A stretch of DNA of 64,000 nt from a virus, in IMG/VR virus record IMGVR_UViG_3300028920_000055, positions 1-64,000 of that record. One strand, 5' to 3'. Position numbers and translations under genes: made by a program. The notes under the pieces were generated by a model. That model saw only the letters and a list, made by a program, of their open reading frames with translations. It was not told where the DNA came from and did not search any database. Each line of letters starts with the position of its first letter. Position 1 is the stretch's first letter. Positions 1 through 23,812 of this stretch are shown here, in pieces.

Positions 1-4
1 TTCA

Positions 5-1285: not shown

Positions 1286-1478
1286 AGCAGCCAAGCAGGC
1301 GGTGTTAAGACTTTACGAACAACGGGGATTTTATTATCAACACGAAATCATTGAGGCATTTGGCGTTCCAATGTATGAGGATTTGGAAATTCTTATGATG
1401 GCGATAAAAGAATTGGCGGATGAAGGGATATTGGAGAAAGGAACTAAAGATGGACTCGAATTCTACCGGAAAAAATAA
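1260..1478 (+). CDS. small hypothetical protein, possible winged helix
   Basis: GGAGG RBS before ATG 1260; C-terminal AIKELADEGILEK...FYR resembles wHTH wing. Confidence 0.5.
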   Translation: MENMVKNIKAAKQAVLRLYEQRGFYYQHEIIEAFGVPMYEDLEILMMAIKELADEGILEKGTKDGLEFYRKK

Positions 1479-1890
1479 AAAAAAGATTTTAATTAACACA
1501 ACAAACAAAAGTTGTTTTAATTCCCAGCTGTTCAGAAGATTAAGACTTGAGCGGCCCTATAGTAATGTCTCTGATTCATATCGATTACATATGTCTAAGC
1601 ATCAGGTGGGATTGAAAATTGGTAAGAGTGAGCCGCAAATTACTCGTTATGAATCAGGAGAACAAAATCCCAGTCTCGAAGCGTTAAAAAAAATATGTTT
1701 ACTTTTTCAAATTGATCCAAAAGATTTAATGGGGTTGATTTGGATTTCAGCTACAGCACTAAGAGAGGGTGAGACTATTTCACTTGATGGCGATAATAAA
1801 AATCTCGATGTAAAAATAAAAATTTGTCCCAGGTGTAAGCATTTGGAGTTGGAAGTCAAACCTTACAAGGCGAAAAAACATGGCAAATGA
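1450..1890 (+). CDS. XRE-family HTH transcriptional regulator with C-terminal CxxC
   Basis: MSKHQVGLKIGKSEPQITRYESGEQNPSLEALKKICLLF is a typical XRE HTH. Confidence 0.8.
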   Translation: MDSNSTGKNKKKILINTTNKSCFNSQLFRRLRLERPYSNVSDSYRLHMSKHQVGLKIGKSEPQITRYESGEQNPSLEALKKICLLFQIDPKDLMGLIWISATALREGETISLDGDNKNLDVKIKICPRCKHLELEVKPYKAKKHGK

Positions 1891-2611
1891 AAAGGTTACA
1901 ATAGGAATCGATGCCGACCTTACAAAGGTCGGGATTGTAACTGTAGATCATGCTACAGGTGAATTATTTCGAGCTGTAAGAGTTAGTGCTGGTAAAAGTC
2001 ATTTTGGTCTGAAAAGATCAATAAATATTGTTGACAATGTGATAGAAGAATTGGCTATTTGCAAGGAACAATATGATATTGGTGTGGTGATGATGGAGGA
2101 TTTCGGCGTTAATATAATGATAATGAAACAATCCGAAAAAGCCGCACTGATGGGAATGATATTTTGGTTTCTTATCAAGAACAAATTTCCTTTGTTTAGA
2201 TACTATAGCACTAAGAAATCTAAAAATAGGACAATAACTTCTGAAAGATTCGTGTTGCCTACTCAATTGAAAAAATTTATCTTTGGTAGAGGGAATGTTA
2301 CAACCAAGGGCAAATCATCCACTTTGCTATTGGACATTTATAAAATGACTGGATACGATTTTCCAGATGATGATATAGCGGATGCTTTCATGTTGGCTCA
2401 AGCCGGAAGATTTTTCCTGAGAAATCTTGGTGATCCGGATGGAGTAAGGGCGTTACCAATTATAAGACACGATACGAAAAGTGTGAAGCCTGTAGTAAAA
2501 AGTTTTTATCTCGATGATAAGAGATTTTCAGTAATACAAGAATGGATAAAAAATCAATTACATCCTAAACCCGATATGTTAACAATTGGAGGGCAAGATG
2601 CTCAAGCGTAA
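1880..2611 (+). CDS. RuvC-like Holliday junction resolvase
   Basis: N-terminal IGIDADLTKVG, central MED, PTQLKKF, C-terminal DDIADA acidic motif. Confidence 0.8.
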   Translation: MANEKVTIGIDADLTKVGIVTVDHATGELFRAVRVSAGKSHFGLKRSINIVDNVIEELAICKEQYDIGVVMMEDFGVNIMIMKQSEKAALMGMIFWFLIKNKFPLFRYYSTKKSKNRTITSERFVLPTQLKKFIFGRGNVTTKGKSSTLLLDIYKMTGYDFPDDDIADAFMLAQAGRFFLRNLGDPDGVRALPIIRHDTKSVKPVVKSFYLDDKRFSVIQEWIKNQLHPKPDMLTIGGQDAQA

Positions 2612-3089
2612 ACACATTCATGCCGATGAAGTCTTTAATGTCGATCACAAGTTGACTAAAAGACTTGGTATCATGATGAAAAAGGCTTTCGGTGTAAAAG
2701 AGGATGGAGAGCCTAATCTTTCCTTGATAACATTTTGTGTACAAGGGAAAGATGAAAATGGCAAGACCGCTCTTAAATCAATGACTTTTTCTTATACCCA
2801 TCTACAACAGATGTTCGTATCTGATGATCGCAACCTTATTTTTCAACTGGCCCATGACTGTCCAGTGGCTTCTGGCACTTATAATGCTGAGTCATTGAAC
2901 AAGGCGAGAACAGAAAAATTGGGAGCAGAAGAAGATGAAAAAGGGAATGTTGAAGCTAATCGAACCGTGCGCCGCCGATCTGTACGCCAGCAGAAGAAGT
3001 TGGCAAAGAAGAGCAAGAAAAGATCAACGAGCCAACAAAAGAGAGGTGCGTCTGATACAGAATTTAGAACGGGATCGAAAAAAGTTTGA
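2598..3089 (+). CDS. hypothetical protein with basic C-terminus
   Basis: ORF with GGAGG RBS, overlaps the previous gene end. Confidence 0.6.
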   Translation: MLKRKHIHADEVFNVDHKLTKRLGIMMKKAFGVKEDGEPNLSLITFCVQGKDENGKTALKSMTFSYTHLQQMFVSDDRNLIFQLAHDCPVASGTYNAESLNKARTEKLGAEEDEKGNVEANRTVRRRSVRQQKKLAKKSKKRSTSQQKRGASDTEFRTGSKKV

Positions 3090-3181
3090 GGAAGCATTAC
3101 AAGGCGTTTTTAATTTAATGCTTGAAGAAAAAGTAGAACAAATGTTATCTGATATATTTCTAATGGAAGGAGAGACAGATT

Positions 3182-3577
3182 ATGTCAGATGTACCAGGCA
3201 GAGGCCCAGGGGGATGGCGCGGAGCAGACGAACTGGATTTCGGGACAGGCAAGGCAAAAGAAACAATGTATTGCCAATGTCCACATTGCGGTTCAGTTAA
3301 ATCTTATAACGAACGCACTGTTGGAATTATATGTTCCAATTGTGAAAAATACTTTCGAATAGAGGATGCAAAACCCGCAACAGACGAAGAAATTGCCGGA
3401 AGTACAGCTCCACATTTCGTTACGGAACAAGCTCAAAGGATGTTGAAATTTCGCGGAAAGATGGAGCAAAAGGCCCACAATTGGAAAGATAAGCAATTGG
3501 CCAGAAGAAAGCAACCAGGGTATAAGCCTGTCCACCATGGTCCAATTGATCCTGATACAGGAGAGAGAACAAAGTGA
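3182..3577 (+). CDS. zinc-ribbon protein
   Basis: CPHCG...CSNC, GGAG RBS. Confidence 0.6.
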   Translation: MSDVPGRGPGGWRGADELDFGTGKAKETMYCQCPHCGSVKSYNERTVGIICSNCEKYFRIEDAKPATDEEIAGSTAPHFVTEQAQRMLKFRGKMEQKAHNWKDKQLARRKQPGYKPVHHGPIDPDTGERTK

Positions 3578-3789
3578 AATTTAAGAGACCAACAGATGGC
3601 GATACAAGAGTGGTGAAGAAATTTGCTATTATTCCAATAACAATCGATGAAGAAACGATTTGGTTAGAAACAGTTTACATACTCCAAGTGTATGTTTCAA
3701 TATATGCAAGAACATTTCTTAATTGGAATGATACTGAATTTGTATCAAAAGAAGTGTATGAAGCCTCAAAAGAGAAGGAAAATGGATAG
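3574..3789 (+). CDS. hypothetical phage protein
   Basis: Overlapping stop/start coupling; GDTRVVKKFAIIP...WLE. Confidence 0.55.
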   Translation: MKFKRPTDGDTRVVKKFAIIPITIDEETIWLETVYILQVYVSIYARTFLNWNDTEFVSKEVYEASKEKENG

Positions 3790-4090
3790 AGCAGATCAAT
3801 ATCAACAACTTCAAGATAAAATTGCTCGCTGGTCAAATGAAACATTTGGCCCTGGCGAGAAAAGACTTTTAGGGATGTGCAATCATCTTGTGATGGAAGC
3901 GGCAGAATTGCGTAATCGTCCAGATGGATTATCAGAACTGGCAGATGTACTCATCTTATTACTCAATATCGCCCGTGTTAATGGGTATCATGTTGATTTG
4001 CTATTTTACGCCGCCGCTAAAAAGCACCAAATCAACGTAAATAGGAATTGGAAATTAATGCCGGATGAAACTTATCAACATGTGGAGTGA
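3782..4090 (+). CDS. dATP/dGTP pyrophosphohydrolase (DUF550/MazG-like)
   Basis: WSNETFG...HL..EAAEL..PD..SELADVLIL...K..IN..R.W pattern; start moved to ATG 3782 after AAGGA. Confidence 0.8.
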   Translation: MDRADQYQQLQDKIARWSNETFGPGEKRLLGMCNHLVMEAAELRNRPDGLSELADVLILLLNIARVNGYHVDLLFYAAAKKHQINVNRNWKLMPDETYQHVE

Positions 4091-4959
4091 TCATGTTACT
4101 CACAGTGGGTATGCCCCTTTATCAAGCTGAAAAAATCGGTTGGTTGGCTTTCGAGGGACTTTGTAGACAAGTATACGCCAAAAGCAAGAAGTATGACTGG
4201 CAAGTAGTTGTCTATGAAGATAGTAATTTAAAATACCAACCAATGGGCAGCAACGCTGTATTCTCCTTTTATGACCGATTGAAACTGGCTGGCTGTAGCA
4301 AATTGGTTTATCTTTCTAATAGCGACAAGAGAATCGCTCCAAGCCAGAAATGGATAGAAATAGCAAATTATGAAAATCCATTACTTGGATATGCAGATTA
4401 TGTTCTCGTACAAGATGCTGATTGCTTTTCTTTTCCAACAAGAATATATGAGACTTGGAATGCTGTAAAATGTACAGTGGGAGATGCTGATCATATACAC
4501 TCTGATATTGATTGGATACACAGCCATCAAGGAGTTTTTTACAATATAAAAACTGAACATACCGCTCTTTTCCGAAAGCATCGACATACCGGATTAAATA
4601 TGGCTTTTAGGGCATCTGCTTTGTTTAATAATCCCCATGAAGTTGAAGTTAAGAATCCAAAGAAATTTAGAGGATTGAATTATTGGCTTTATTATATAGC
4701 AACCAAATGGGCAAAAGGTTCAGACCTTAAACCAGTTATAAAAGAAATTGGTCAAAAGACATGGGAAAGTGGACTCGACACTCATGGCTACAATACTATT
4801 ACGACAGATGGTCGCAGCCAGATGATAGAAAACGCCAATAAAAAGCCTTTTTATCCTTATCATGGTAATATAAACAAGCACATCCCCGCTTTCGTTATGT
4901 CAAGATTAAGAAGTTTAAAACATGACGAAGGTACTTCAAAGAATATACTTACTCTATAA
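4087..4959 (+). CDS. divergent GT-A-fold glycosyltransferase-like protein
   Basis: LTVGMP start, VVVYED, DAD (DxD) motif; paralogous to 51554-52357. Confidence 0.6.
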   Translation: MIMLLTVGMPLYQAEKIGWLAFEGLCRQVYAKSKKYDWQVVVYEDSNLKYQPMGSNAVFSFYDRLKLAGCSKLVYLSNSDKRIAPSQKWIEIANYENPLLGYADYVLVQDADCFSFPTRIYETWNAVKCTVGDADHIHSDIDWIHSHQGVFYNIKTEHTALFRKHRHTGLNMAFRASALFNNPHEVEVKNPKKFRGLNYWLYYIATKWAKGSDLKPVIKEIGQKTWESGLDTHGYNTITTDGRSQMIENANKKPFYPYHGNINKHIPAFVMSRLRSLKHDEGTSKNILTL

Positions 4960-5228
4960 TGGAGGCGAAAATGGATAAGAAAGAACGAAAGAAAAGGGTG
5001 TTAAGTTATCCGCCCGCAGATCCAACGAAGGAGTGCCCTCTTGGTACACTTCATCAAAAGACTTGCGCTCACTGTCGTTTCGCTATTCAACGATACACCC
5101 AAAGAGAGATCGATGAATACAGAAGCAGAGGCAAGTTGGAAATGGCTAATAAACAGTATGCCTGTATTTTTACGGCCATTTTAATAGAGTTAATGAGAAA
5201 CAACCAACTCTTAGAGAGGATAAAATGA
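4959..5228 (+). CDS. hypothetical Cys-rich protein
   Basis: ECPL...CAHC...AC; coupled ORF. Confidence 0.5.
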   Translation: MEAKMDKKERKKRVLSYPPADPTKECPLGTLHQKTCAHCRFAIQRYTQREIDEYRSRGKLEMANKQYACIFTAILIELMRNNQLLERIK

Positions 5229-5494
5229 TACTTCTGCTTGTGGCCAAGGAAGGTGTTCCTGTAGATGCGAAACTTGACGCCAGTCAGATTCAAAAGGCAG
5301 TTACAGCCTATAACAAGAATCTAAAAAGGCACAGGGAGCCTTTTATCCTTACAATTCAAGGCTATGATGTATACGCTATTCCCGAAACCATTCGCAAAGT
5401 GGAATCCGAAGGGGATAACATAGTCAAGCTCGATCTTACAGCCATCATGAGATTGGCTGAAGAAGAGGAATTGGATCACTTGGAGTTAACATGA
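5225..5494 (+). CDS. hypothetical protein
   Basis: ATGA overlap, GAGG RBS. Confidence 0.5.
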   Translation: MILLLVAKEGVPVDAKLDASQIQKAVTAYNKNLKRHREPFILTIQGYDVYAIPETIRKVESEGDNIVKLDLTAIMRLAEEEELDHLELT

Positions 5495-6096
5495 AGAAAA
5501 AGAGAGATGCAAGAGAGCTTTTAAAGAAAGCCAAGAGAAAAAATGCGAAAGCTCTTTTAAGAAAGGCCAAAGACAGAAAGAAAATTACCAAGGCCAAGCT
5601 CAAACAATCCGTAAATCCCTACAAAAGGATCAGTTGGGCCAATGCTAAAAGATATTACATTTATGGTATTGTCGCTTCTGATAATCCTCATCCAAAGGAT
5701 AATATTGTCTATACGCAAGACCTTATTACTCAATTAGCTCAACGCCATCGATCTGTAGATAGTTTTCCTGTGTACTATAATTTCGATACGGAACGCCTAA
5801 TAGGATCAGCAAGGCTTAATGGAGTAATGAGAGATGGTGGAAGATATTATCTGCTTGGAGCGGTGACGGTTGTTGTACCTCTTAAATTCGCTGAGCGAAT
5901 GGACAAGATGTATTTGGGATTGGGAGTAAGCGCGGAAAAGTCTCAAATCAGAAGAACAACGGATCAAAAGCTCATCACAGGCGGTAAAGTAATATCCATC
6001 TCTCTTATATCGAAAGATAAAGTTTGCGATCCTTTATGTAAGGTGAATCAGATATTGAAGGATGCTGACATAGATCGTCGTCTCGAAGAAGATTAA
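5491..6096 (+). CDS. hypothetical protein, basic N-terminus, possible degenerate prohead-protease-like fold
   Basis: ORF; FPVYYNFD...LIG...LGLG...ISISLI echoes HK97 protease motifs. Confidence 0.5.
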   Translation: MKKKRDARELLKKAKRKNAKALLRKAKDRKKITKAKLKQSVNPYKRISWANAKRYYIYGIVASDNPHPKDNIVYTQDLITQLAQRHRSVDSFPVYYNFDTERLIGSARLNGVMRDGGRYYLLGAVTVVVPLKFAERMDKMYLGLGVSAEKSQIRRTTDQKLITGGKVISISLISKDKVCDPLCKVNQILKDADIDRRLEED

Positions 6097-6174
6097 AAGT
6101 CTCAACCGGGAGAAAATCAGTATATTATAGTACAATAAACCCAATCAAATTTGCTCTCTCTCGCATTTTTACCC

Positions 6175-6206
6175 TAAAGCCATATCTCGGTATGGCTTTA
6201 TTTTTT
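6175..6206 (+). terminator. intrinsic terminator
   Basis: TAAAGCCATA-tctcgg-TATGGCTTTA followed by a T run. Confidence 0.7.
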
Positions 6207-6212
6207 CCACCA

Positions 6213-6336
6213 TAAAAAATTACACCAGCGCATTTTATTAAATTCATTCGGGAACAAAAAAAGGGATGATGAAATTAAATTTTCATCGATCCCTTTTTTT
6301 ATTGTTTTATAGGAAAATGTGATAGCACCGAGGCAT
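6213..6336. repeat. tripartite spaced motif, copy 1
   Basis: TAAAAAATTACACCAG-N17-ATTCGGGA-N75-CGAGGCAT, identical spacing at 13989-14112. Confidence 0.8.
6256..6300. terminator. long hairpin / possible bidirectional terminator
   Basis: AAAAAAAGGGAT GATGAAA ... TTTCATC G ATCCCTTTTTTT. Confidence 0.6.
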
Positions 6337-6441
6337 TGGGAATGGGGTTTTGAATGCTGCCAGCCATTGTGGTGTGGATATTGTTGAAATTCAGGAGATT
6401 GGTTGTTGTGGTTTGTTAATTGTTATATTGGATATTGTAGA

Positions 6442-6725
6442 TTGGTGGTCGGGGACTTAGAATTTTTCGGTAAAAATTCTAAAAATTTACATTGTGTGTT
6501 GGGGATTGTGCAAGATAGTTGGATCTTAGGAGAGTTGATTGTTGTTCGGTGACGTTAAATAGAAGATAAAAGATAGGTGTTAGTTGTTGGGGGTTTTTCT
6601 TTAATCTTTAACGCTATAATATAAGAAAAAAAAAGGAGAAATAAAAGAGAAAAATTTACATTGTGTGTAGTAAAATGTTGGCGGGGGACTTAGTACTTTT
6701 TTCGAAAAAAATTTTTTTCCCCGGT
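6442..6725. repeat. GGGGACTTAG motifs and 19-bp direct repeats at a strand-skew switch
   Basis: GGGGACTTAG at 6451-6460 and 6684-6693; AAAAATTTACATTGTGTGT at 6481-6499 and 6650-6668. Confidence 0.75.
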
Positions 6726-6737
6726 TAAAAAAAGTAT

Positions 6738-6766
6738 TTGACTATTTAATTTATTTTTACTATATT
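6738..6766 (+). promoter_or_regulatory. sigma70-type early promoter
   Basis: TTGACT-17-TATATT with an upstream A-tract. Confidence 0.75.
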
Positions 6767-6826
6767 CTAACGTAATACCCTATATAAGCGAAAAGCCTAT
6801 AACAACTAACGGAAAAGGGGAAAGAG

Positions 6827-7405
6827 ATGACAACAGACGAATTAGTAAAGATTAAAACGATAGAGTTAGCACAAGTTTTAAAAGACAGGCGACAACAGTT
6901 CGGAGAAGATAAGAGAAGTAAGCTAAAGAAAAACTGGAGACAATTAGCTAAACCCTTTAAAGGGGACAACATGATAAATCCACATCCCAGGAAACACCCA
7001 CACCATTACGAAACACCAGACCCAGACAACATAGAGTTAGGGGATCACTACATACACCGGGGGAATAGAGAAACCTACGAAGTAGTAGACATCACAGATG
7101 ACAACGTTTACTTCTTATCACACAGAGAGGAAACATATTTTATTAACAAGAATGACCTAAACAACTTTCGCAAGACAATTCGCCCTTCACACACAACATG
7201 GTTTATAGAAACAACAGACGAGGAATCGGAAGGGAAAGAAGAAGAACCAGTACACAACGTTAAAAGACGGAAATACGGAACAGTACACAAAACAGAAAAA
7301 AGAGAACAACTAAACGATAGACCTTACAAAAGAAAGGGAACGGGAAGAAGAACAAGACACTATAACAGCATTGACGTAACAGTTCTCGATTTCTTAGGGA
7401 AGTAA
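6827..7405 (+). CDS. hypothetical early protein
   Basis: RBS AAAAGGGGAAAG after the promoter; 192-aa ORF. Confidence 0.65.
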   Translation: MTTDELVKIKTIELAQVLKDRRQQFGEDKRSKLKKNWRQLAKPFKGDNMINPHPRKHPHHYETPDPDNIELGDHYIHRGNRETYEVVDITDDNVYFLSHREETYFINKNDLNNFRKTIRPSHTTWFIETTDEESEGKEEEPVHNVKRRKYGTVHKTEKREQLNDRPYKRKGTGRRTRHYNSIDVTVLDFLGK

Positions 7406-7429
7406 ACAACAAACTAAAGGAGAAGAACC

Positions 7430-7921
7430 ATGGAACAACAAAGAAAAGAACGACCCGAATACGCCTTTCGAGGGGAGACACCAATGGACACAATGGACTT
7501 CACCAAACACAGACTCGAAAGCGAAACCGACTTCCAACAAAACGACACACAGTGGCTACTTACAGCTGCCGGATCAACAGACAATTGCCTACCTGACATG
7601 ACAGACGACATCCTACGATACGCCGTAACAGAAATCTTTTCCACCATCCTCTCTATCATGACATTTCACAGAGACAGCTATAACGATCCAGAAGTCTTTG
7701 ACCGAATCCGGGAACACTGTATCAAAGCTCCAAACATCTTTATCAATCCAATAGGAACAACCAACAAAGACATCACACCGGATCAAATCAACGAACACAA
7801 CTGTGACTGGTTTGTAGCTGTGGTTGTTGATCCTCTACGGTTCGCTTTTCTTAGCGAAAAACAACAGAAGGATCTCATCCAATGGGCTTTCGACGCACAA
7901 GACAATTATCGGGACGTTTGA
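7430..7921 (+). CDS. hypothetical early protein
   Basis: AAGGAG RBS, ORF. Confidence 0.65.
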   Translation: MEQQRKERPEYAFRGETPMDTMDFTKHRLESETDFQQNDTQWLLTAAGSTDNCLPDMTDDILRYAVTEIFSTILSIMTFHRDSYNDPEVFDRIREHCIKAPNIFINPIGTTNKDITPDQINEHNCDWFVAVVVDPLRFAFLSEKQQKDLIQWAFDAQDNYRDV

Positions 7922-7945
7922 CAACAAACAAGGAGACCAAACACC

Positions 7946-8284
7946 ATGGCAGAAGAGATCACAGCTTTGACTTACTATATACTTAAACACCATAAAGTAC
8001 CAGTTGAGTCTTACGAGAAAGGAGAACAATTAACAGACGGCGAAATATTCCTTACGGATAAAAAGACATCCATACAGGTGTGTTTCGCGCCAACTGTTAC
8101 GGGGGGACTACAATTCACAGGTTACAGAGTAGTAAAACTAACGGAAGATAACTGTTTCCACTATTCGAGACACTACACAACTATCGAGGAAATAGTAAAA
8201 CATCTCACAATAAACCCGGTATCAGCAAACATCTATGGCAATGGGGAAACAATGAACTTTGATTCACCAAACATCGATAAATAA
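7946..8284 (+). CDS. hypothetical early protein
   Basis: AAGGAG RBS, ORF. Confidence 0.65.
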   Translation: MAEEITALTYYILKHHKVPVESYEKGEQLTDGEIFLTDKKTSIQVCFAPTVTGGLQFTGYRVVKLTEDNCFHYSRHYTTIEEIVKHLTINPVSANIYGNGETMNFDSPNIDK

Positions 8285-8306
8285 ACTACAAACAAGGAGG
8301 TGTACA

Positions 8307-8504
8307 ATGGTTGATGTAATGAGAAAGTTGTTGGCGGCGGTCTTAGGATTTTTCCGTAAACTTTTTTCGCCCCGGAAGAAAGCCAAGACACCATTCAAGT
8401 TTCGGCCTACATTTACCAGTTACGAAGGCCCAGACAAGAGAGAACATGTGGCAGCTCACAGGCGAGGGAAACTCCCCCGGCCTCGGAAGCCACTTAACTT
8501 CTAA
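8307..8504 (+). CDS. small basic protein
   Basis: AAGGAGGT RBS before ATG 8307. Confidence 0.55.
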   Translation: MVDVMRKLLAAVLGFFRKLFSPRKKAKTPFKFRPTFTSYEGPDKREHVAAHRRGKLPRPRKPLNF

Positions 8505-8508
8505 CAAC

Positions 8509-8532
8509 AAGCGGGAGTTTCGGCTCCCGCTT
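8509..8532 (+). other. GC-rich hairpin with TTCG loop, no U-tail
   Basis: AAGCGGGAG-tttcgg-CTCCCGCTT, intergenic. Confidence 0.6.
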
Positions 8533-8557
8533 AACTTCAAACAAAGGAAACCAAACA

Positions 8558-9004
8558 ATGTTAGAATTCGAACAAACATTCGACATACTACAAGCCAAGT
8601 ATCGATGCACAGGAATGGCTGGACACCAACCATCTATCGAGCACCACACAACAGACGTGGTAGCTAACGCTTGTAAGAAGATAACACAAGCTGTTAGATG
8701 GGTTGTGCCTTTCTATTTCGATCCTGACCACAAGAAGGAAAACACAAAAGATAAGGAAGATTTAGTAACTTACATCAAACACAAGTTAGAACTCGGAGTA
8801 AACATACAATTTTGGGTTTCGGCCGGATCGATAGAAAACGATAACATCAACCAAGGATCAATTGAGGCGTTAGAGAAAATTGATAGTTGGGAGTGGATTA
8901 GCATTGCTGAATTGAGAGAAGAAAGTCAGTTAGGTGTTAATGGTGATGTGGATCTTAATATTCCCTATATTATCGAGGAATTGGAACGTCTCAATTGGAT
9001 GTAG
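8558..9004 (+). CDS. hypothetical early protein
   Basis: AAGGA RBS, ORF. Confidence 0.6.
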   Translation: MLEFEQTFDILQAKYRCTGMAGHQPSIEHHTTDVVANACKKITQAVRWVVPFYFDPDHKKENTKDKEDLVTYIKHKLELGVNIQFWVSAGSIENDNINQGSIEALEKIDSWEWISIAELREESQLGVNGDVDLNIPYIIEELERLNWM

Positions 9005-9079
9005 TAAGTTGTTGGGCGGGGACTTAGTATTTCCCCGCCTAAAAATTTTTTTTCTAACGAAGCAGGGAGAGAACAAACA

Positions 9080-9277
9080 ATGTCGAGTCCCATTCACATC
9101 AATCAACTGGAAAAGAAACTTATCGAGAAAGAGGAAGCCCTAACAGGTCTCATCTATCTACAGTGTACACATGAGTACTTAGATGGGGATACATTCACAG
9201 ACACAATAAAGGAGCTGTTGGAACAAATCTATGTGGCCAGGGATGAGTTATCAGGAGCGAGATCGAAATCACAATAA
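9080..9277 (+). CDS. hypothetical small protein
   Basis: GGGAG RBS, ORF. Confidence 0.55.
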   Translation: MSSPIHINQLEKKLIEKEEALTGLIYLQCTHEYLDGDTFTDTIKELLEQIYVARDELSGARSKSQ

Positions 9278-9306
9278 CTAATAACAACAGAAGGAGAAAC
9301 ATCATG
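9270..9306 (+). repeat. 37-bp leader/RBS direct repeat, copy 1 (copy 2 at 9748-9784)
   Basis: CACAATAACTAATAACAACAGAAGGAGAAACATCATG identical in both. Confidence 0.9.
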
Positions 9307-9747
9307 AACTTTACAAGAAACAGAGTCAAGGCTATTAACGCCGATATTAAATCGGCACTAAACAAGATCGGAAAGAAGTACCAATGTACAATTACATTGG
9401 GCAGTACAACATTCACTTCTGCCGATTTTAAAACTCGTATCTTAGGATACGCCACCACAAACGATGGACAGCCATTGTCCAGGGATGATCTCATCAGACA
9501 GGAAGTGACCCGAAACTTGGAACAAGGTTCAGGTATCGCACTTGGATTAACAATTGATCACCAAGGAACAGTATTCACCTATGGTGGACAAGCATACAAG
9601 TTTCTGGGAATCAAGCCAAGCTACAGGAAGTATCCCATCGTTGTTGAAAGAACTTACGACAAAGTACTCTTAAAACTCCCGGTATCGGCTTCATCAAACA
9701 TCATTAACGCTTCAATGACCAAGAGAAAAAAGGTTGCCACCAAATAA
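9304..9747 (+). CDS. hypothetical phage protein
   Basis: AAGGAG RBS; C-terminal F.Y.G..YK..GI....RKYPI motif common in phage hypothetical proteins. Confidence 0.7.
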   Translation: MNFTRNRVKAINADIKSALNKIGKKYQCTITLGSTTFTSADFKTRILGYATTNDGQPLSRDDLIRQEVTRNLEQGSGIALGLTIDHQGTVFTYGGQAYKFLGIKPSYRKYPIVVERTYDKVLLKLPVSASSNIINASMTKRKKVATK

Positions 9748-9781
9748 CACAATAACTAATAACAACAGAAGGAGAAACATC

Positions 9782-10306
9782 ATGTTACAATCAATTTGCA
9801 GCAGGGAAGGGTGTAACAACAAGCGAGCATCCAATTCCAAGTATTGTGTCCAACACAAAAAAGAAGCAAGACAACACTGGTTGGACATGATCAAGGAACA
9901 AGGAGCGGAAAGAGAAAGACAACAGGCTTTTTTCAAAGAAGTCTTTGACGAAGCACACAGGCTGGGCCAAATAGCAGCAGCCGATCACACACCCACTCCA
10001 ATGGTGGTACAAGAACACACCAACCAATTGGACGATAATTCTCCGGTAAAACAACAATGGATAGTAGGCGGAGGTGTTTGCGGCTTTGCGTGGGTGATTA
10101 TAAAGCCTGGTAATTGTGCAGCCGCTAACTACGCCAAGAAACACTGTGGCGCCAGCAAACACTACTACGGTGGAGTATCCATTTGGGTAGGCGAGTATGG
10201 ACAATCAATGGAACTCAAACAGGCCTATGCAAGAGCTTTCGCAGATCACCTTGCAAAACACCTGGGTGATAAAGTAACAGTTTACGCCGGATCAAGAATG
10301 GACTAA
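9782..10306 (+). CDS. conserved hypothetical phage protein
   Basis: Start placed after the duplicated leader; PMVV...GGVCGFAWV.IKP...QSMELK.AYA.AFA motif. Confidence 0.75.
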   Translation: MLQSICSREGCNNKRASNSKYCVQHKKEARQHWLDMIKEQGAERERQQAFFKEVFDEAHRLGQIAAADHTPTPMVVQEHTNQLDDNSPVKQQWIVGGGVCGFAWVIIKPGNCAAANYAKKHCGASKHYYGGVSIWVGEYGQSMELKQAYARAFADHLAKHLGDKVTVYAGSRMD

Positions 10307-10321
10307 CAAGGAGAAAGTACA

Positions 10322-10489
10322 ATGGAAGAAAAGGAAGGAAAAAGAGTATACATCGTCCAAGGATGGAACAAGAACAAGGAAAAGGTTTACAGTACAGCAT
10401 CCAATTTTGGTGACGCTCTAATAGTATTGGACAAAGCTATCGGAAGGCTCGATAAACAACAAATCAAATGGGCAACACTCGACATTTAA
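10322..10489 (+). CDS. small hypothetical protein (55 aa, not in ORF track)
   Basis: AAGGAG RBS; MEEKEGKRVYIVQGW...ATLDI-stop fills the gap. Confidence 0.55.
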   Translation: MEEKEGKRVYIVQGWNKNKEKVYSTASNFGDALIVLDKAIGRLDKQQIKWATLDI

Positions 10490-10501
10490 GGAGGCCAACA
10501 A

Positions 10502-10843
10502 ATGAAATACGTAATCACGAGACAACTTCAATGGCCAACAGGTGAATTGGTAGTAGAAGTTTCAACAGGCGGAATGGACTACACCAATCCAGATGCCTTG
10601 GCACCAATGTATCCCAACGAGATGGTTGAACTTACATTTAAGGAGGTGGAACAGTCAGCAATAAACATTGTTGAGAAGTGGCAAACAGACATCAACAGTG
10701 GGAAAACAAGATTCAATGGTAAAACAGTCAAGCTCGGATTCGGATCAACATTGGGCTTCACAATGCCATTTCAAGGAGAAGAATTCGACAAAGAAATATT
10801 AAAAGAGTTCAAACAGTGGCTCAGAAACACAAACAAGGAGTAA
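10502..10843 (+). CDS. hypothetical early protein
   Basis: TAAGGAGG RBS. Confidence 0.65.
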   Translation: MKYVITRQLQWPTGELVVEVSTGGMDYTNPDALAPMYPNEMVELTFKEVEQSAINIVEKWQTDINSGKTRFNGKTVKLGFGSTLGFTMPFQGEEFDKEILKEFKQWLRNTNKE

Positions 10844-10849
10844 CACACA

Positions 10850-11161
10850 ATGATCAAACGATTTTTCGCTAAAATCCGGAGTGACAGGAGTAAGAACACA
10901 CTCACAAGTTGTGGAGACAATTATCTATTTGTCAAAATGACCGGCTGTCACATCGGGGCTACAATTACCATGTGGCCAACAAGGTATGGAGGGGATCACA
11001 TAACAATCACCGTTACACCAGGTTCAGTTGGAGAAACAACAGGAGATGAATCGGAACAGATCATTTTTGAGAAAACAGTGAAAGGCCCACAACCGGGCGA
11101 CTACAAAACAATAAGAAGGCTCAAGAAACATTTGAGAACTTTGGAAGGAGACACACAATGA
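10850..11161 (+). CDS. hypothetical early protein
   Basis: AAGGAG RBS. Confidence 0.6.
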   Translation: MIKRFFAKIRSDRSKNTLTSCGDNYLFVKMTGCHIGATITMWPTRYGGDHITITVTPGSVGETTGDESEQIIFEKTVKGPQPGDYKTIRRLKKHLRTLEGDTQ

Positions 11162-11859
11162 GCAATCATGTGATATCGATTCAATTTACAGGTGAGACCA
11201 AAGAATATCAGGTCTCTTTACAAGACAAAGGAAACATTACTGTATTTACAGAAAAGAATCATGCCAACATAGAGGAAATAGTTGACATCAGAGACCCGGA
11301 TTGTTTGTTGAAAGGGATCGAGAATGATGTGCACAGGGAGGTGGACCATTATCTTAGATATAAAGACACAGTACAAAGAACATTTGCGGAAATAATAAAA
11401 AAATACGCTCCGAGCGATGGTGAGGAAACAATCAATTCACAATTACAAGCCAGAAATTGTGGTGACACCATGCACCAATTAGCAGACATGTTAAAAGAGG
11501 AAGTAACAGAAGTGTTCTTCTTCTCTTTCCTACCAGAATACGAAAATGGAGATCCACGTCTCGCACAAGAGGAACGAGACAAGAAGGTACTCAACAACTG
11601 GATCAGAAATCACGAACCATTCAGAAAAGACAACACAGATAGAATAATTATCTATGCACAAGCCTTTGCCACAGACTGCGCCGCCAGGAATCAAAATCCA
11701 AAAGAATACACAGGAAAGCAACTGGCAGATCATGATCCAACAGACTACAATGAATTGACATTGGTACTTTTCCAAAGCAACGATTGTAGTCTACTCGAAG
11801 CCACAGACATCAACTTTGCGGAGCTATTTCACAAGCTCGAACTTAACAATCCATTTTAG
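11158..11859 (+). CDS. hypothetical early protein
   Basis: ATGA coupling, AAGGAG RBS. Confidence 0.65.
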   Translation: MSNHVISIQFTGETKEYQVSLQDKGNITVFTEKNHANIEEIVDIRDPDCLLKGIENDVHREVDHYLRYKDTVQRTFAEIIKKYAPSDGEETINSQLQARNCGDTMHQLADMLKEEVTEVFFFSFLPEYENGDPRLAQEERDKKVLNNWIRNHEPFRKDNTDRIIIYAQAFATDCAARNQNPKEYTGKQLADHDPTDYNELTLVLFQSNDCSLLEATDINFAELFHKLELNNPF

Positions 11860-11870
11860 GAGGAACAACA

Positions 11871-12317
11871 ATGACACTCAGCGAAGCAAAACTATTAACT
11901 CCTGGTGATATCATCTATCACAAGACACAAACCAATTATAATGGATCGTCACAACAATGGAGGATCAACGGGAAAGTCAAGACTTGGAAAACAAGGCCCA
12001 ACGAGGTACGAGTACCAATCAAGAGAGGGATGTACGAGTATGACTACTTAACACACAGGAACATGGACCAATTTAATACCGAATACGGCTCTTTGGTGAA
12101 AGTTGGGTCAAGAGAGAATGGTGATGGTTGTGGCATCGATTGGTTTGTGTTTAAAGGAAAAGTTTCTCTCGATAGAGCCTTGACAACATTGGGCTGGAGG
12201 GACTATGATCTACTTCCAATTTATAAAGGCCCAGGTAAGATGTTCCGAAACATTCCAATAATCTTTCACAAGGGAACAAGAACAATTGTCTACAGTCGCA
12301 GAGGGCTTGACATCTAA
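11871..12317 (+). CDS. hypothetical phage protein
   Basis: AGGAGG RBS; WRINGKVKTWKTRP...PIK.G.Y motif. Confidence 0.65.
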   Translation: MTLSEAKLLTPGDIIYHKTQTNYNGSSQQWRINGKVKTWKTRPNEVRVPIKRGMYEYDYLTHRNMDQFNTEYGSLVKVGSRENGDGCGIDWFVFKGKVSLDRALTTLGWRDYDLLPIYKGPGKMFRNIPIIFHKGTRTIVYSRRGLDI

Positions 12318-12332
12318 CAAAGGAGGTGCACA

Positions 12333-12623
12333 ATGGTAATGCAACAACTAACTACAGAAGATGTAAAGTGGCTGTTGAAAAGGGAAATAGACGATAGGGT
12401 AAGTAAGTACGAACAGTTGATGAAGACAACAATCCCTAAAACATCAACCAAAACCTACAAAACAAGAGCTATGTGGTTGATGGCTCGTATCAATCAAGCA
12501 TTGTCTATTCCAATTGGCGACGATCAATCAATTGACAGCTGGCGCAAACAACAGAAAGATTTACAAAAAGTAAAAGAGTACATCGGGTATTTAATCGAAC
12601 AATGTCAACGACACAACATTTAA
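12333..12623 (+). CDS. hypothetical early protein
   Basis: AAGGAGGT RBS. Confidence 0.6.
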   Translation: MVMQQLTTEDVKWLLKREIDDRVSKYEQLMKTTIPKTSTKTYKTRAMWLMARINQALSIPIGDDQSIDSWRKQQKDLQKVKEYIGYLIEQCQRHNI

Positions 12624-12635
12624 GGAGGTGGAACA

Positions 12636-12860
12636 ATGTCAAATACCAGAACTTACATTGACCACGCAAGCTACTACTACCACGTGGACTTTAACAATGG
12701 TAAAAAGGCAATGGTGGAGATACAAGAGGATGAACGCAAATCATTGCGCGTGGAACAGGTATGGCATACACATATCGGAATGAGCTTATCAGAAAAGGAA
12801 ACAAAAAAGGCGGAACATGAGGCTCTTACTCTTCACACCACTCGAATGAAACTATCTTGA
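12636..12860 (+). CDS. hypothetical early protein
   Basis: TAAGGAGGT RBS. Confidence 0.6.
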   Translation: MSNTRTYIDHASYYYHVDFNNGKKAMVEIQEDERKSLRVEQVWHTHIGMSLSEKETKKAEHEALTLHTTRMKLS

Positions 12861-12874
12861 AAGGAGGCACACCA

Positions 12875-13312
12875 ATGAGAAAGGTAATACATTTCACAAA
12901 TCTCGTCAAACAAGTGGAAAGTCTTGCCGTTCTATTAGCCGAGAAAGACCAAGTACCAAAGTCCAGTGGCTATCTTGTAGGAGCATTTTTCACCTTAATA
13001 TTTCCATTCGATAATTGGGTACACATCGAGGAAATACATCCTACAGGATTTAAAATTAGCAAGCAAGAATGGCTGGACATCGCCAAAATTGGACAGAAGT
13101 GGGACAACGAGCAAAATATAGAATTGGCGAAACAAGGGGAAATGACCTATTTGCCAGGAGGCGGTTGGTTGAACAGCGGGCCATCCAGTGAACAAGTCCA
13201 GGAACTCAACACAGTACTTTACTATACAGAGGACATCACTTGGGAAGACAAAGCAGACACATTCGAGTACAAGGTACTACCGGGCGTTCCATACAATGGA
13301 GACACACCATGA
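12875..13312 (+). CDS. hypothetical early protein
   Basis: AAGGAGG RBS before ATG 12875. Confidence 0.6.
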   Translation: MRKVIHFTNLVKQVESLAVLLAEKDQVPKSSGYLVGAFFTLIFPFDNWVHIEEIHPTGFKISKQEWLDIAKIGQKWDNEQNIELAKQGEMTYLPGGGWLNSGPSSEQVQELNTVLYYTEDITWEDKADTFEYKVLPGVPYNGDTP

Positions 13313-13713
13313 GCCTATTACAGAGAAACAAACAGGAGGATGTCCATCCATCGATCACTGGAAGGAAAGTCCTTAGAGCCGACATACTACGCGAATGGAT
13401 TAAGATGGAACAAGACGATAGTGACATCTCCACCGTATTCGACACAATGAAGGCTCTACCATCATCCTTCAAAGGATCGAGATTTGGACATGACAGTCTC
13501 CGGATAATGGGATCCAAGAATTTCATTAAATCTATCATGGCTCTATTAACACCATTAACTAAACTGGAAAACGATCACAGGAGACTCGAAATAATAATGA
13601 GAGAGCTGGACAACAATTGTATTCAGCCGCCTTATAACAAGGACAAGTCACATTGGGTACTCTACGTTCGCCTTATAAGGCGGGAAATATCACTTAACAC
13701 CACTCAACTATAG
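13309..13713 (+). CDS. hypothetical early protein
   Basis: GGAG RBS, ATGA coupling. Confidence 0.6.
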   Translation: MSLLQRNKQEDVHPSITGRKVLRADILREWIKMEQDDSDISTVFDTMKALPSSFKGSRFGHDSLRIMGSKNFIKSIMALLTPLTKLENDHRRLEIIMRELDNNCIQPPYNKDKSHWVLYVRLIRREISLNTTQL

Positions 13714-13724
13714 GGAGATCAGCT

Positions 13725-13946
13725 ATGGAAAGACAATCGGTAGAAAGCTCCAATCTTGGATCAGTAGGCTATGATAAGAAGACACAGACCTTGGAAGTCC
13801 AGTTTAAGAACAATGGACGAGTCTATCAGTACAAAGATGTCCCAAGCAAGGTCGTGAAACAGCTATTGGAAGCCGAATCAATTGGCTCTTATTTCCGAAA
13901 GAATATAGCCTACAGATACAAGTACAAGGAAATGAAACAACAGTGA
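13725..13946 (+). CDS. KTSC domain protein
   Basis: VESSNLGSVGYD...LEVQF...YQY.DVP......LL.A.S.GSYF..NI. Confidence 0.9.
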   Translation: MERQSVESSNLGSVGYDKKTQTLEVQFKNNGRVYQYKDVPSKVVKQLLEAESIGSYFRKNIAYRYKYKEMKQQ

Positions 13947-13952
13947 CCAACA

Positions 13953-13985
13953 GGGATAAGCTGGTCTAACCAACCGGCTTATCCC
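13953..13985 (+). terminator. hairpin ending the early block
   Basis: GGGATAAGCTGGT...ACCGGCTTATCCC; no U-tail on the + strand. Confidence 0.5.
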
Positions 13986-13988
13986 ATC

Positions 13989-14112
13989 TAAAAAATTACA
14001 CCAGACCAAAATCAACAATCGATTCGGGACACAGGGGACAAAACACAAAATATTTTTTTACTTTTCTCCGGTTTAAATTTAAAGCCGTCAAATCACAATG
14101 CACACGAGGCAT
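13989..14112. repeat. tripartite spaced motif, copy 2
   Basis: TAAAAAATTACACCAG-N17-ATTCGGGA-N75-CGAGGCAT, as at 6213-6336. Confidence 0.8.
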
Positions 14113-14322
14113 GGAAACCAAAAAATTTAGAACTTACAACAAACTATAACCTATTGACTATTAAGGACTTACTAAGTACTTAATTCTATTGACTATAGCT
14201 ATTTTCTATATACTATTATAAATAAAAGGGTTATATATAACTATATAATAGTTAATACTATAACTAAGTTTTAACTATTAACGATTAATTCGTTATTTTT
14301 AACGAAAAAAATAAACAGTGTC

Positions 14323-14420
14323 AAAAGCCGATTAGCACGTTATAGAACGTTAAAAGCCGGTTGCAAAACCCTATTATCAAAAGCCGGTTGCAAAAAGCCG
14401 ATTAGCACGTTATAGAACGT
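14323..14420. repeat. nested direct repeats
   Basis: AAAAGCCGATTAGCACGTTATAGAACGT x2 enclosing AAAAGCCGGTTGCAAAA x2. Confidence 0.85.
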
Positions 14421-14518
14421 CAAAACCGGTCAATAGTATATAGTTAGTCGTTAGTTGACCTTTTCCGGCTTTAACGTTTTTTCGCTAAAATCTTTTTTAA
14501 AAAAAAGTAAAAAATAGC

Positions 14519-14587
14519 TTGACAAAAAGATAATAGTTTATTATATTCCGTTAGTCGTTAGATTAGCGTTAGACGGTTCTTTGAAAA
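14519..14587 (+). promoter_or_regulatory. rrn-like promoter with UP element and boxA (cassette 1)
   Basis: TTGACA(14519)-17-TATATT(14542), A-tract upstream, GTTCTTTGAAAA at 14576-14587. Confidence 0.85.
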
Positions 14588-14633
14588 TCGTTCTATTTCC
14601 GGCTTTAACTCTTTTTTCAAAAAGGGGAAAGTT

Positions 14634-15014
14634 ATGAAAACCGAACCGAAAAAAGCCGAAAAGCCGGTTGCAAAAAGCCGAAAAAAGCCGGTTGCAAAAA
14701 GTCAATATATCGTTAACGTCAAAAAGGGAAATAAAACCCTTAGATTGACGGTTAACGATATTCAAAAAGCCGATTATCACGTTTTAAATTCGATAGCCAA
14801 ACTGGCAAACGTTTATTATCCCGGTTTCCAGTTTTTGCCCCGCGCGGGGAAAATATCCGTTATTATTTCCCCGAATAGCGCGGAATCTAAAAGGTTTCGC
14901 GCGGAAACCGAAAAAAAGGTCAAGGATTCTGCCGAACGTCAAAAAGCCGGTTTGACGGAATATAGAAAAACCCTAAGAGCGGAAAAGGAAAAGATCGACT
15001 CTTTTCTTAGTTGA
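14634..15014 (+). CDS. basic hypothetical protein (cassette 1)
   Basis: AAGGGGAAAGTT RBS, own promoter and terminator. Confidence 0.75.
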   Translation: MKTEPKKAEKPVAKSRKKPVAKSQYIVNVKKGNKTLRLTVNDIQKADYHVLNSIAKLANVYYPGFQFLPRAGKISVIISPNSAESKRFRAETEKKVKDSAERQKAGLTEYRKTLRAEKEKIDSFLS

Positions 15015-15076
15015 CCGGTCTAAGGGTTAGCACGTCAATTGACTAAAATCGGCCGGAAATAGAACGTAATAACGCT

Positions 15077-15113
15077 AAAAAAGCCCTATAGTTTAACTAT
15101 AGGGCTTTTTTTT
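15077..15113 (+). terminator. intrinsic terminator
   Basis: AAAAAAGCCCTATAGT-tta-ACTATAGGGCTTTTTTTT. Confidence 0.85.
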
Positions 15114-15332
15114 ATATTTTAACGTGAAAATCGTAAATATTAGCGTATATAGTTAATAGTTTATTATAAGTTTATATAGGGCTTTTTAAAATGCGCTATA
15201 TAAAGCCCTTAGTTAAAAGTATAGCGTTAATCGTTAATAGGGCTTTATATAGGGCTTTATAATCGTTAATAGTTTATAGTTAGTTGACCTTTTCCGGCTT
15301 TAAAAATAAACGAAAAAAAAGTAAAAAATAGC

Positions 15333-15401
15333 TTGACAAAAAGGTTTTAATTTATTATATTACGTTAGTCGTTAGATTAGCGTTAGACGGTTCTTTGAAA
15401 A
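15333..15401 (+). promoter_or_regulatory. rrn-like promoter with UP element and boxA (cassette 2)
   Basis: TTGACA(15333)-17-TATATT(15356), GTTCTTTGAAAA at 15390-15401; near-duplicate of the cassette 1 promoter/leader. Confidence 0.85.
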
Positions 15402-15446
15402 TCGGCTTTTCGGTTTTGCATAACGAAAAAGGAAAAGGGGAAAGTT

Positions 15447-15884
15447 ATGCAAAACCTAAATATTAATCTTTATCGTTTAAACGATTCCCAATTGACCGAT
15501 TATAGAAACCTTTTAGCAAAAGAGATATTAACCTTAGAATTGACGGAATCCTTAGATAAAGCCCTTTTTTCTCTTTTGACCGTTAAACTGGAAACCGTTA
15601 ATACTATGCTAACCCTTAGAAAAAAGGTTAGCACGTTAAATCGTAAAAGGTCAATTGACCGGTCAAAAAGGGTCAAATATTTTCGGGATTTAAAAGAGGC
15701 GGTAAAAGCCCTTAAAAAGGAACCGGCTTTAAATTACGTTATAGTATTTAACCCCTATATAAACGATTTTCGCAGAATAGAACGTTATTTGACCTATAGG
15801 GGAAAAGATTTAAAACCGGTTCTAAAAATCGGCTTTTCTTATTTAATCGGTTCTAACGAAAAAAAAGCGATAGCTTATAAATAA
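15447..15884 (+). CDS. basic hypothetical protein (cassette 2)
   Basis: AAGGGGAAAGTT RBS, own promoter and terminator. Confidence 0.75.
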   Translation: MQNLNINLYRLNDSQLTDYRNLLAKEILTLELTESLDKALFSLLTVKLETVNTMLTLRKKVSTLNRKRSIDRSKRVKYFRDLKEAVKALKKEPALNYVIVFNPYINDFRRIERYLTYRGKDLKPVLKIGFSYLIGSNEKKAIAYK

Positions 15885-15929
15885 CTAACTAACGTTATGC
15901 AAAACTGAAAAGCCCTATTAACGCTATAT

Positions 15930-15962
15930 AAAGCCCTATAGTCAAGCTATAGGGCTTTTTTT
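15930..15962 (+). terminator. intrinsic terminator
   Basis: AAAGCCCTATAG-tcaag-CTATAGGGCTTTTTTT. Confidence 0.85.
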
Positions 15963-16218
15963 ATTTCCGGTTGCAAAACCCCGGAAAGTATATACGGGAT
16001 TATTAAACTCTTTGCAAAACCCTATTATCAAAACCCTATTATCAATTGACCTTTTCCCTTATTAAATCCCTTTTTGCATAACGATTAGCAAAACCCTATT
16101 ATCAAAACCCTATAGGGTATAGTATACCCCAACAGCCTATTAGCTATTGACTATTAGCTATTATCAATTGACGGTTTTCAATAGTCAATTGACTATAGAC
16201 TATATACGCTATACTATA

Positions 16219-16253
16219 CCCTATACCCTATACCCTATACCCTATACCCTATA
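16219..16253. repeat. tandem (CCCTATA)5
   Basis: Five exact 7-mers. Confidence 0.95.
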
Positions 16254-16440
16254 GACTATTAACGTATATACTATTATTAACTAACTACGAATAGTTAGCT
16301 ATTATTAACGACTATAAACTATTAATAAATAGTATTAACTATAAACTATTGACTATTAACGACTTACAACAGGGGGGGTCTATTAACAATGTAGAGCTAA
16401 CGGGAAGCGACTAACAGCATATACCATTTTTACATTGGAG

Positions 16441-23143: not shown

Positions 23144-23393
23144 TGCTTGGGAAGACAGCATGAAGGAGAAGTTAAAAGGTCATACTCCATTTCCAGCCAA
23201 TTGGACTTATTATCGGCGTGCCCAGCATATGCTCGATTGTTATGTTCAGCTCCGTGATCAAATGGAGAAAAAGGCAGCATCAAAAAAAAGCAATGATCCA
23301 ACAAGAATTGGAGATTTAAGTTATAACACAGTTAATAATCTGATTGCAGTAATACAACGTTGGCTACCAACATTGAAGGAAGCGGGTGTATAA
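23088..23393 (+). CDS. hypothetical protein
   Basis: GGAGG RBS. Confidence 0.55.
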   Translation: MMNNLIEPAMAESIKSRIDAWEDSMKEKLKGHTPFPANWTYYRRAQHMLDCYVQLRDQMEKKAASKKSNDPTRIGDLSYNTVNNLIAVIQRWLPTLKEAGV

Positions 23394-23812
23394 TGAATGC
23401 TTTGGGTATATTACAAGCAGCCAAAGAAAGGGGATTGTCAACATACGCTATTGAAAGGATAACAGGCATTCATCATAATACTATACAGAGGTATCTGCGT
23501 GGCAGTAAAATGATTTCTAAAAATATGTTGAAAATTGAGGATAGAAAGGATATTTTACTTGGGACATCCCCTAAAGATCATTATTCGCCTATCAACATAT
23601 TGTTACGTAAAAACAATAGGCTTTTAGAAATCCCAACACTTGAGAGTATTTGTTCAGAATGTATGCACTTTGTATTGGCCGCCTTTGAAGATGATATTGA
23701 GAATGGAGATAGGTGGTGGGAGGATGCAATATTGAATGTTAGAAAAGATGATACTCTAATACGTAAGTTACAGAAGCTGGTAATAAAATGGGGATTGAAA
23801 CATGAGTATTGA
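23393..23812 (+). CDS. HTH DNA-binding protein
   Basis: GLSTYAIERITGIHHNTIQRYLRG. Confidence 0.65.
   Translation: MNALGILQAAKERGLSTYAIERITGIHHNTIQRYLRGSKMISKNMLKIEDRKDILLGTSPKDHYSPINILLRKNNRLLEIPTLESICSECMHFVLAAFEDDIENGDRWWEDAILNVRKDDTLIRKLQKLVIKWGLKHEY

Follow-up and report, generated by a model that had tools for sequence, protein, structure and literature searches.

A three-box DNA motif with exact spacing that may head two tandem early-region modules in an uncultured phage

The window analysed here comprises the first 64 kb (positions 1 to 64,000) of IMG/VR record IMGVR_UViG_3300028920_000055, a linear record of 90,051 bp from an uncultured phage that is estimated to be 92% complete, with about 9 kb of the genome missing. 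Public sequencing runs place this phage in marine sediment. This window contains two copies of a 124-bp motif made of three boxes, TAAAAAATTACACCAG-N17-ATTCGGGA-N75-CGAGGCAT; both copies are on the + strand, in direct orientation, with an offset of 7776. We tentatively propose, with a probability of roughly 0.38, that the two copies are homologous headers of two tandem early-region leader modules and that each would be a protein-docking site with a boundary or organising role. A preliminary description made from the sequence alone had reported identical boxes and identical spacings at these two places, and we confirmed both the coordinates and the letters:

6213-6336, + strand: motif copy 1, with box 1 at 6213-6228, N17 at 6229-6245, box 2 at 6246-6253, N75 at 6254-6328 and box 3 at 6329-6336.
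13989-14112, + strand: motif copy 2, with box 1 at 13989-14004, N17 at 14005-14021, box 2 at 14022-14029, N75 at 14030-14104 and box 3 at 14105-14112.

The motif is real and non-random. The scan of the rest of the genome that the preliminary description had called for was run on the 90-kb record and returned only the two known copies: no third exact copy was found across the whole 90,051 bp, and no degenerate copies exceeded chance when up to two mismatches were allowed per box. The repeated 16-mer is not significant by itself, as shuffled genomes yield 0-5 such pairs. However, none of 60 block-shuffled genomes presented an exact pair of at least 12 nt together with two additional 8-mers in register. 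The inner spacers were described as different in sequence and identical in length, and this was borne out: 32 of the 92 spacer positions (35%) are identical between the copies against a background of 27% (p = 0.06), and N17 and N75 have the same lengths in both copies, without any indel, despite their near-random sequence. Because these spacers are essentially randomised yet neither has gained or lost a base, and because the shuffled genomes did not reproduce the pattern, we infer selection on both the boxes and their spacing, without which the pattern appears hard to explain. The offset of 7776 is common to the three boxes only; the downstream promoters are offset by 7781 and the words of the ribosome-binding site (RBS) by 7807. 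The surroundings of box 3 present an extra likeness between the copies, GCAC(A)CGAGGCAT(T)GG, once a shift of 1 nt is allowed for. The three boxes are mutually unlike, and the motif has neither internal repeats nor palindromes. The word of box 1 that joins an A-tract to TTACA has five matches in the window versus 1.7 expected, four of them inside the two leader zones; it recurs as AAAAATTTACATTGTGTGT at 6482-6491 and 6651-6660, in the non-coding spacer downstream of copy 1.

Beyond the motif itself, the two copies are set in modules of parallel architecture, formed by the following features:

6175-6200, + strand: intrinsic terminator made of a hairpin and a T-run (-12.7 kcal/mol, z = -4.65), 12 nt ahead of box 1 of copy 1.
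6256-6300, + strand: A7-stem-T7 hairpin between boxes 2 and 3, in copy 1 only (-21.8 kcal/mol), with the form of a bidirectional terminator.
6337-6737, + strand: spacer 1, non-coding, 401 nt, G/T-rich with 7% C, carrying GGGGACTTAG hairpin repeats.
6738-6766, + strand: sigma-70-like promoter of block A, TTGACT-N17-TATATT, its -35 element 525 nt after the start of box 1.
6813 and 6827: RBS of block A, AAAAGGGGAAAG, and the ATG that follows it.
6827-13946, + strand: block A, about 20 small genes, the largest protein having 233 aa.
13725-13946, + strand: gene with a match to the KTSC domain, the last of block A.
13953-13985, + strand: 13-bp hairpin without a T-run (-22.5 kcal/mol, z = -7.0), stopping 3 nt ahead of box 1 of copy 2.
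14113-14518, + strand: spacer 2, non-coding, 406 nt, G-poor and of restricted vocabulary.
14519-14547, + strand: sigma-70-like promoter of the first cassette of block B, TTGACA-N17-TATATT, its -35 element 530 nt after the start of box 1.
14620 and 14634: RBS of this first cassette, again AAAAGGGGAAAG, and its ATG.

Spacers 1 and 2 cannot be aligned and are nearly equal in length (401 versus 406 nt). In both modules, A/T tracts are found between the spacer and the promoter, and the distance from box 1 to the promoter is nearly kept (525 versus 530 nt) across this unalignable sequence. The terminator at 6175-6200 closes the replication/DNA-metabolism operon. The preliminary description placed each copy directly after a terminator-like hairpin, and this stands for copy 1, which follows a classical terminator, but only in part for copy 2, whose hairpin is stronger and lacks a T-run. 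The shift in base composition that it noted at the copies was upheld: immediately past box 3 of copy 1, C drops to 7% in 6337-6737, block A is poor in T and rich in A, and G is scarce in 14113-14518. In contrast, its statement that the motif brackets a 7.8-kb block is doubtful, as each copy lies equally far upstream of the next early promoter. Based on this matching distance, copy 2 is better read as the head of the block B module than as the tail of block A, and the simplest description is that one leader module occurs twice in tandem, each time at the head of an early transcription unit, the bracketed appearance being a by-product of this arrangement.

Other repeats are found in the same regions. 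Words of the form GTTGTTGG(C)GGGGACTTAG are located at 6436, 6669, 8322 and 9003, each at a small hairpin, two of them in spacer 1 and two within block A. Block B presents a direct repeat, AACTATAAnCTATTGACTATTAAnGACTTAC, at both of its edges (14142 and 16337, 29/31 identical, within zones 14125-14194 and 16320-16369); the first of these begins 30 nt past box 3 of copy 2 and the last runs into ACAACAGGGGGGG.

Several classes of functional sequence were evaluated for the motif and rejected. Coding sequence is excluded by stops in all frames of copy 1, and neither a tRNA nor a match to any Rfam family was found. A shared RNA structure was rejected as well, the in-register consensus fold reaching -0.45 kcal/mol on the + strand and -2.3 kcal/mol on the - strand. 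Copy 1 folds well solely through its private A7-stem-T7 hairpin and copy 2 folds no better than shuffled sequences; the stretch of copy 2 that is equivalent to 6256-6300 folds at -4.2 kcal/mol and likewise does not surpass shuffled sequences. A function of the motif as one continuous RNA is also unlikely given the strong terminator that interrupts copy 1. Finally, a sigma-70-type promoter was rejected: taking TTACAC as the -35 element yields TTCATT and TCGATT 17 bp further on, each matching at 3/6 positions and without the A at position 2. Since the motif is non-coding, has no common RNA fold and does not fit a sigma-70 promoter, it most likely functions at the DNA level, to judge from its sequence. 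That the spacing is exact while the spacers are randomised suggests a DNA site whose function depends on spacing, plausibly one that assembles protein at multiple sites. The multi-site nucleoprotein assembly suggested by the preliminary description is therefore plausible in its general form, given the absence of a shared RNA fold, the terminator within copy 1 and the non-coding nature of the motif; the particular mechanisms that it named found no support, as discussed below.

Under the reading that we favor, each module would consist, in this order, of a hairpin closing the previous unit, the 124-bp motif, a spacer of about 400 bp, A/T tracts, TTGAC(T/A)-N17-TATATT, the RBS AAAAGGGGAAAG and small early genes. 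The spacer would be untranslated and free to change in sequence while its length is kept. The three unlike, non-palindromic boxes, as double-stranded DNA, would together offer a single asymmetric platform on which a sequence-specific protein or complex docks, and this platform would lie in a probably untranscribed gap that extends from the terminator to the next early promoter. Once bound, the complex could serve the early module in cis, as its boundary or its organiser, for instance by halting polymerases that read through or by controlling the early promoter region. The binding of a protein, the nature of this protein and the role of the complex are all what we infer. Candidates for this protein would be the TerS-like protein (28306-29256), the two helix-turn-helix proteins (1420-1890 and 23360-23812) and the products of blocks A and B. 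Phage lambda offers a parallel in its cos (cosQ-cosN-cosB) and attP sites, which consist of several different short boxes spread over 100-250 bp, whose spacing matters and which are read by a protein assembly. Our motif resembles these sites in its spaced, unlike boxes. It differs from them in that there is no evidence of cutting or recombination, in that the terminase genes are distant from it (TerS-like at 28.3 kb and candidate TerL at 36.4 kb) and in that it occurs twice per genome in direct orientation.

Several observations weigh against the header reading. No protein binding the motif was identified, and the boxes lack the repetition and the palindromic symmetry of usual operators. A distance of 400-500 bp is far upstream for the control of a sigma-70 promoter, and a third early promoter, at 15333, has no motif header. 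Moreover, just two copies are present in one lineage, scans of other sequence collections for the exact pattern returned chance hits only, and the contigs of both recoverable relatives end short of the early region.

The genes of this phage are all on the + strand. The record starts within an SbcC-like gene, followed by a helix-turn-helix protein, a dATP/dGTP pyrophosphohydrolase of family PF04447 and other DNA-metabolism genes up to 6.1 kb; the pyrophosphohydrolase gene lies in this replication module at 3692-4090. Block A (6.8-13.9 kb), block B (14.5-16.4 kb) and small genes come next, and then the TerS-like gene, the candidate TerL, the portal, the protease/capsid genes, an island of sugar genes and the tail genes, with helicases, primase and DnaE past the window. 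Both motif copies fall inside the only large non-coding zones of the genome, which are limited to 6.1-6.8, 13.95-14.63, 15.0-15.45 and 15.9-17.06 kb, and copy 1 marks the junction of the last (replication) module with the first early genes. Ten proteins of block A were examined and presented no Pfam match and no annotated PHROG function, barring one weak HNH-like match. The candidate large terminase (36413-38221) had no match in Pfam, PHROGs or solved structures, and is 52% identical to the gene that occupies the same pre-portal position in a relative. Just upstream of the terminator that precedes copy 1 lies a 41-nt element, TAGTACAATAAACCCAATCAAATTTGCTCTCTCTCGCATTT (6128-6168), with a 38/41 identical copy at record positions 86710-86750, in a 47-nt intergenic gap (86.7 kb), and a partial third copy at 54126-54155. 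Non-early genes may use this element as a promoter or for processing.

We then extended the search to other genomes. The motif appears to be private to this lineage: scans of viral contigs, metagenome contigs and prokaryote genomes for the exact patterns of box 1 and of box 1 with box 2 returned only chance hits in unrelated coding DNA, and a BLAST search of both motif copies against cultured phages returned no match. No close relatives were found for the proteins adjoining the motif. The 290-aa protein encoded at 4087-4959 has homologues that are only about 33% identical, in unrelated phages, and phages with the same DnaE gene share replication genes only. Two true relatives were recovered: G001, a 49-kb viral contig with a portal 54% and a capsid 78% identical, and G015:C119, a contig of 59.6 kb with a capsid 80% identical that was binned in a metagenome-assembled genome labelled Chloroherpeton thalassium. 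Both are syntenic with our phage from the equivalent of about 20-24 kb onward, and the early region is absent from both contigs. The minus strand of G015:C119 (50000-59565) opens with about 950 nt in which G-free DNA of restricted vocabulary is followed by a G/T-rich stretch, three 48-nt iterons and an AT-rich stretch, after which the first gene begins. This end zone shows that complex non-coding zones are a trait of this phage group. No significant likeness to the motif was detected in it, a shared 10-mer being not significant.

Read depth was approximated from the Logan contigs of three public marine-sediment runs (X1, X2 and X3) placed on 1-20 kb; these give one figure per contig with strains mixed and molecule ends not visible, the uncovered regions of the window were left unused, and X3 covers only part of the stretch at low depth. 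Contigs span both motif copies unbroken in two runs. In X1, depth is 18.7 over 1-9299 (a single long contig), 24.4 over 9755-14528, 24.7 and 31 over 14.56-16.24 kb, and then 20.3. In X2, it is 13.8, then 15.2 (8035-9299), 23.2 (10319-14528), 29.4 and 24.3, and then 16.2. At the level of contigs, neither X1 nor X2 presents a depth step at either motif copy, and the only step common to both lies at about 16.23 kb, within CCCTATA repeats. From about 9300 to 16230, depth is 1.25-1.6x that of the flanks in these two independent runs, with a left edge that differs between them. The raised depth is consistent with a mixture of strains that have part of the region in common, and could be caused by such strain mixing or by a real copy-number or end feature. 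Public assemblies break at an exact 37-nt repeat (9270-9306 and 9748-9784) that spans the RBS and start codon of the adjacent genes 9304-9747 and 9734-10306. In a variant found in X2, 9040-10318 (1,279 bp) is replaced by 24 other letters, which indicates that block A is variable between strains.

These data bear on the possibility that the copies mark the ends of a DNA segment. The 7,776-bp unit that runs from the first copy to the second might be a long terminal repeat, duplicated at both ends of virion DNA, with the motif as the border site of a terminase or nuclease. K-like Staphylococcus phages have terminal repeats of about 7.6-8.5 kb delimited by 12-bp inverted repeats, their redundancy being proven by two-fold read depth (PMC6022877). 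Block A resembles the terminal repeats of K-like phages (PMC6022877), SPO1 and T5 in its content, a host-type promoter (TTGACT-N17-TATATT) followed by about 20 small + strand genes to which no function is assigned. The genes are unidirectional, copy 1 stands where the last (replication) module meets the first early gene, and the motif is asymmetric, made of several boxes and placed in silent DNA. As in K-like phages, a short conserved motif is found at both edges of an ~8 kb block of small early genes in a virulent phage; however, the K-like border is a single inverted 12-bp word accompanied by two-fold depth, whereas here three different boxes over 124 bp are in direct orientation and contig depth has no step. 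Depth around copy 2 goes from 24.4 to 24.7-31 in X1 and from 23.2 to 29.4 and 24.3 in X2, which is weak evidence against a repeat end, and the X2 contig inside the block (8035-9299) is at baseline, 15.2 versus 13.8 and 16.2. Furthermore, the sole step shared by the runs is away from the motif, and the strongest early promoters belong to block B, past copy 2. A terminal repeat is unlikely. More generally, it is also rather unlikely that the copies are recognition sites at which a 7.8-kb terminal repeat, or a segment that enters first, has its ends defined; they would then be a new, direct-oriented three-box signal used by the packaging or entry machinery of a lineage whose candidate terminase belongs to no known family. 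Signals that halt injection during stepwise DNA entry, as in the first-step transfer of T5, would agree with the position of the motif, in non-coding DNA at the edges of a probable host-takeover gene block. In T5, the injection stop region is large and untranslated, contains many repeats and palindromes along with an ordered set of eight DnaA boxes, and depends on A1 and A2 (bioRxiv 10.1101/866236). The motif is comparable in being non-coding DNA tied to a block of pre-early-like genes, where the T5 region acts in cis, but the repeats, the palindromes and the array of eight boxes are absent. Indeed, DnaA boxes are not clustered, with 41 hits over 90 kb at up to one mismatch, of which the zone contains just one, at 6373. 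Pfam and PHROG searches of block A proteins detected no A1/A2-like protein, although no direct comparison with A1 and A2 was made and divergent analogues are possible. A stop signal ahead of the block, as copy 1 would be, also has no role in the T5 model, and an injection stop is very improbable.

The remaining alternatives concern recombination, transcription, replication and the absence of any function. The shared boxes, chiefly the 16-bp identity, could be junctions that let block A be swapped or deleted by homologous or site-specific recombination, as PeSL (promoter-early stem-loop) cassettes do in T4-type phages. These cassettes, which combine a stem-loop with a sigma-70-type promoter, are present many times over in the hyperplastic regions of such phages (PMC2839356, PMC4122927). 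The direct orientation and the identical 16-bp core would suit recombination; block A also differs in composition from its neighbours and varies among natural strains (the variant without 9040-10318), and block B is likewise flanked by a direct repeat (14142/16337). However, integrase and resolvase families (PF00589, PF00239) were unmatched in the 92%-complete record while control genomes were matched, and no contig joins 6.2 kb to 14.0 kb in the three runs, although contigs drop rare forms. The single observed deletion (9040-10318) is not bounded by the motif, the three separate boxes at fixed spacing are left unexplained, and the motif is not a many-copy cassette of stem-loop and sigma-70 promoter as PeSL are (PMC4122927). 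We consider recombination junctions quite improbable. PeSL have a further bearing on the motif, as both are composite non-coding elements in which a stem-loop precedes two boxes 17 bp apart, both stand between variable small genes, and both presumably mark module junctions; they differ in that PeSL carry a true sigma-70-type promoter in many copies, whereas the motif has two copies, no sigma-70 fit, a third box 75 bp on and a promoter ~400 bp downstream. Boxes 1 and 2 might form an unconventional promoter, with -35-like and -10-like elements for a polymerase redirected by an alternative host sigma or a phage factor, and box 3 as a downstream element. Such a promoter would agree with the 17-bp gap, which is the canonical -35/-10 spacing, with the location just past a terminator, where a new transcription unit would begin, and with the PeSL layout of stem-loop then promoter. 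In contrast, both -10 positions lack the key A, and no further copies were found, even degenerate ones. Pfam models detected neither the sigma-70 family (Sigma70_r2) nor a T7-type polymerase in the record, the latter being a weak negative because the model also missed all control genomes. A transcript from copy 1 would also reach the strong terminator about 5-45 nt from its start, and we hold such a promoter to be improbable. Similarly, little probability attaches to replication origins or sites of initiator loading. Phage SPP1 has two origins, oriL and oriR, and the two copies could correspond to a similar pair, each beside an easily melted, strand-skewed spacer. The silent DNA does adjoin A/T-rich, strongly strand-skewed spacers, and the non-coding zone of the related phage has three 48-nt iterons followed by an AT-rich stretch. 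The boxes are, however, mutually unlike and hence not iterons, DnaA-like boxes are unclustered, no initiator gene was recognised and the 10-mer common to the motif and the iteron of the relative is not significant. Finally, the motif could have no function today and be a neutral relic left by an old duplication, as its two copies and its restriction to one lineage might suggest. Identical runs of 16, 8 and 8 nt and spacers free of indels are nevertheless unexpected at 35% spacer identity, and with 0/60 shuffles reproducing the pattern a relic is hardly credible.

The motif shares its position with the K-like repeats, PeSL and the T5 stop region, yet it fails a defining feature of each. Regarding the mechanisms named in the preliminary description, a T5-like injection stop finds no support, with DnaA boxes unclustered and no A1/A2-like protein detected in the Pfam and PHROG searches, and neither does the excision of the 7.8-kb block, with no integrase or resolvase in Pfam searches and no contig joining the copies. 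Processing sites for a terminase or terminal repeat are unsupported rather than refuted, contig depth having no step at the copies.

Even for model phages, the non-coding signals that border early regions are poorly understood, as illustrated by the T5 stop region and the border repeats of K-like phages. The motif described here is a clean case, with three short boxes whose spacing is kept while the intervening sequence has changed, in exactly two copies. If it is an end or entry signal, it would constitute a new kind of end signal in a group of phages whose terminase is unrecognisable. Should it be a boundary or regulatory site, it would show how tandem early modules are built and copied.

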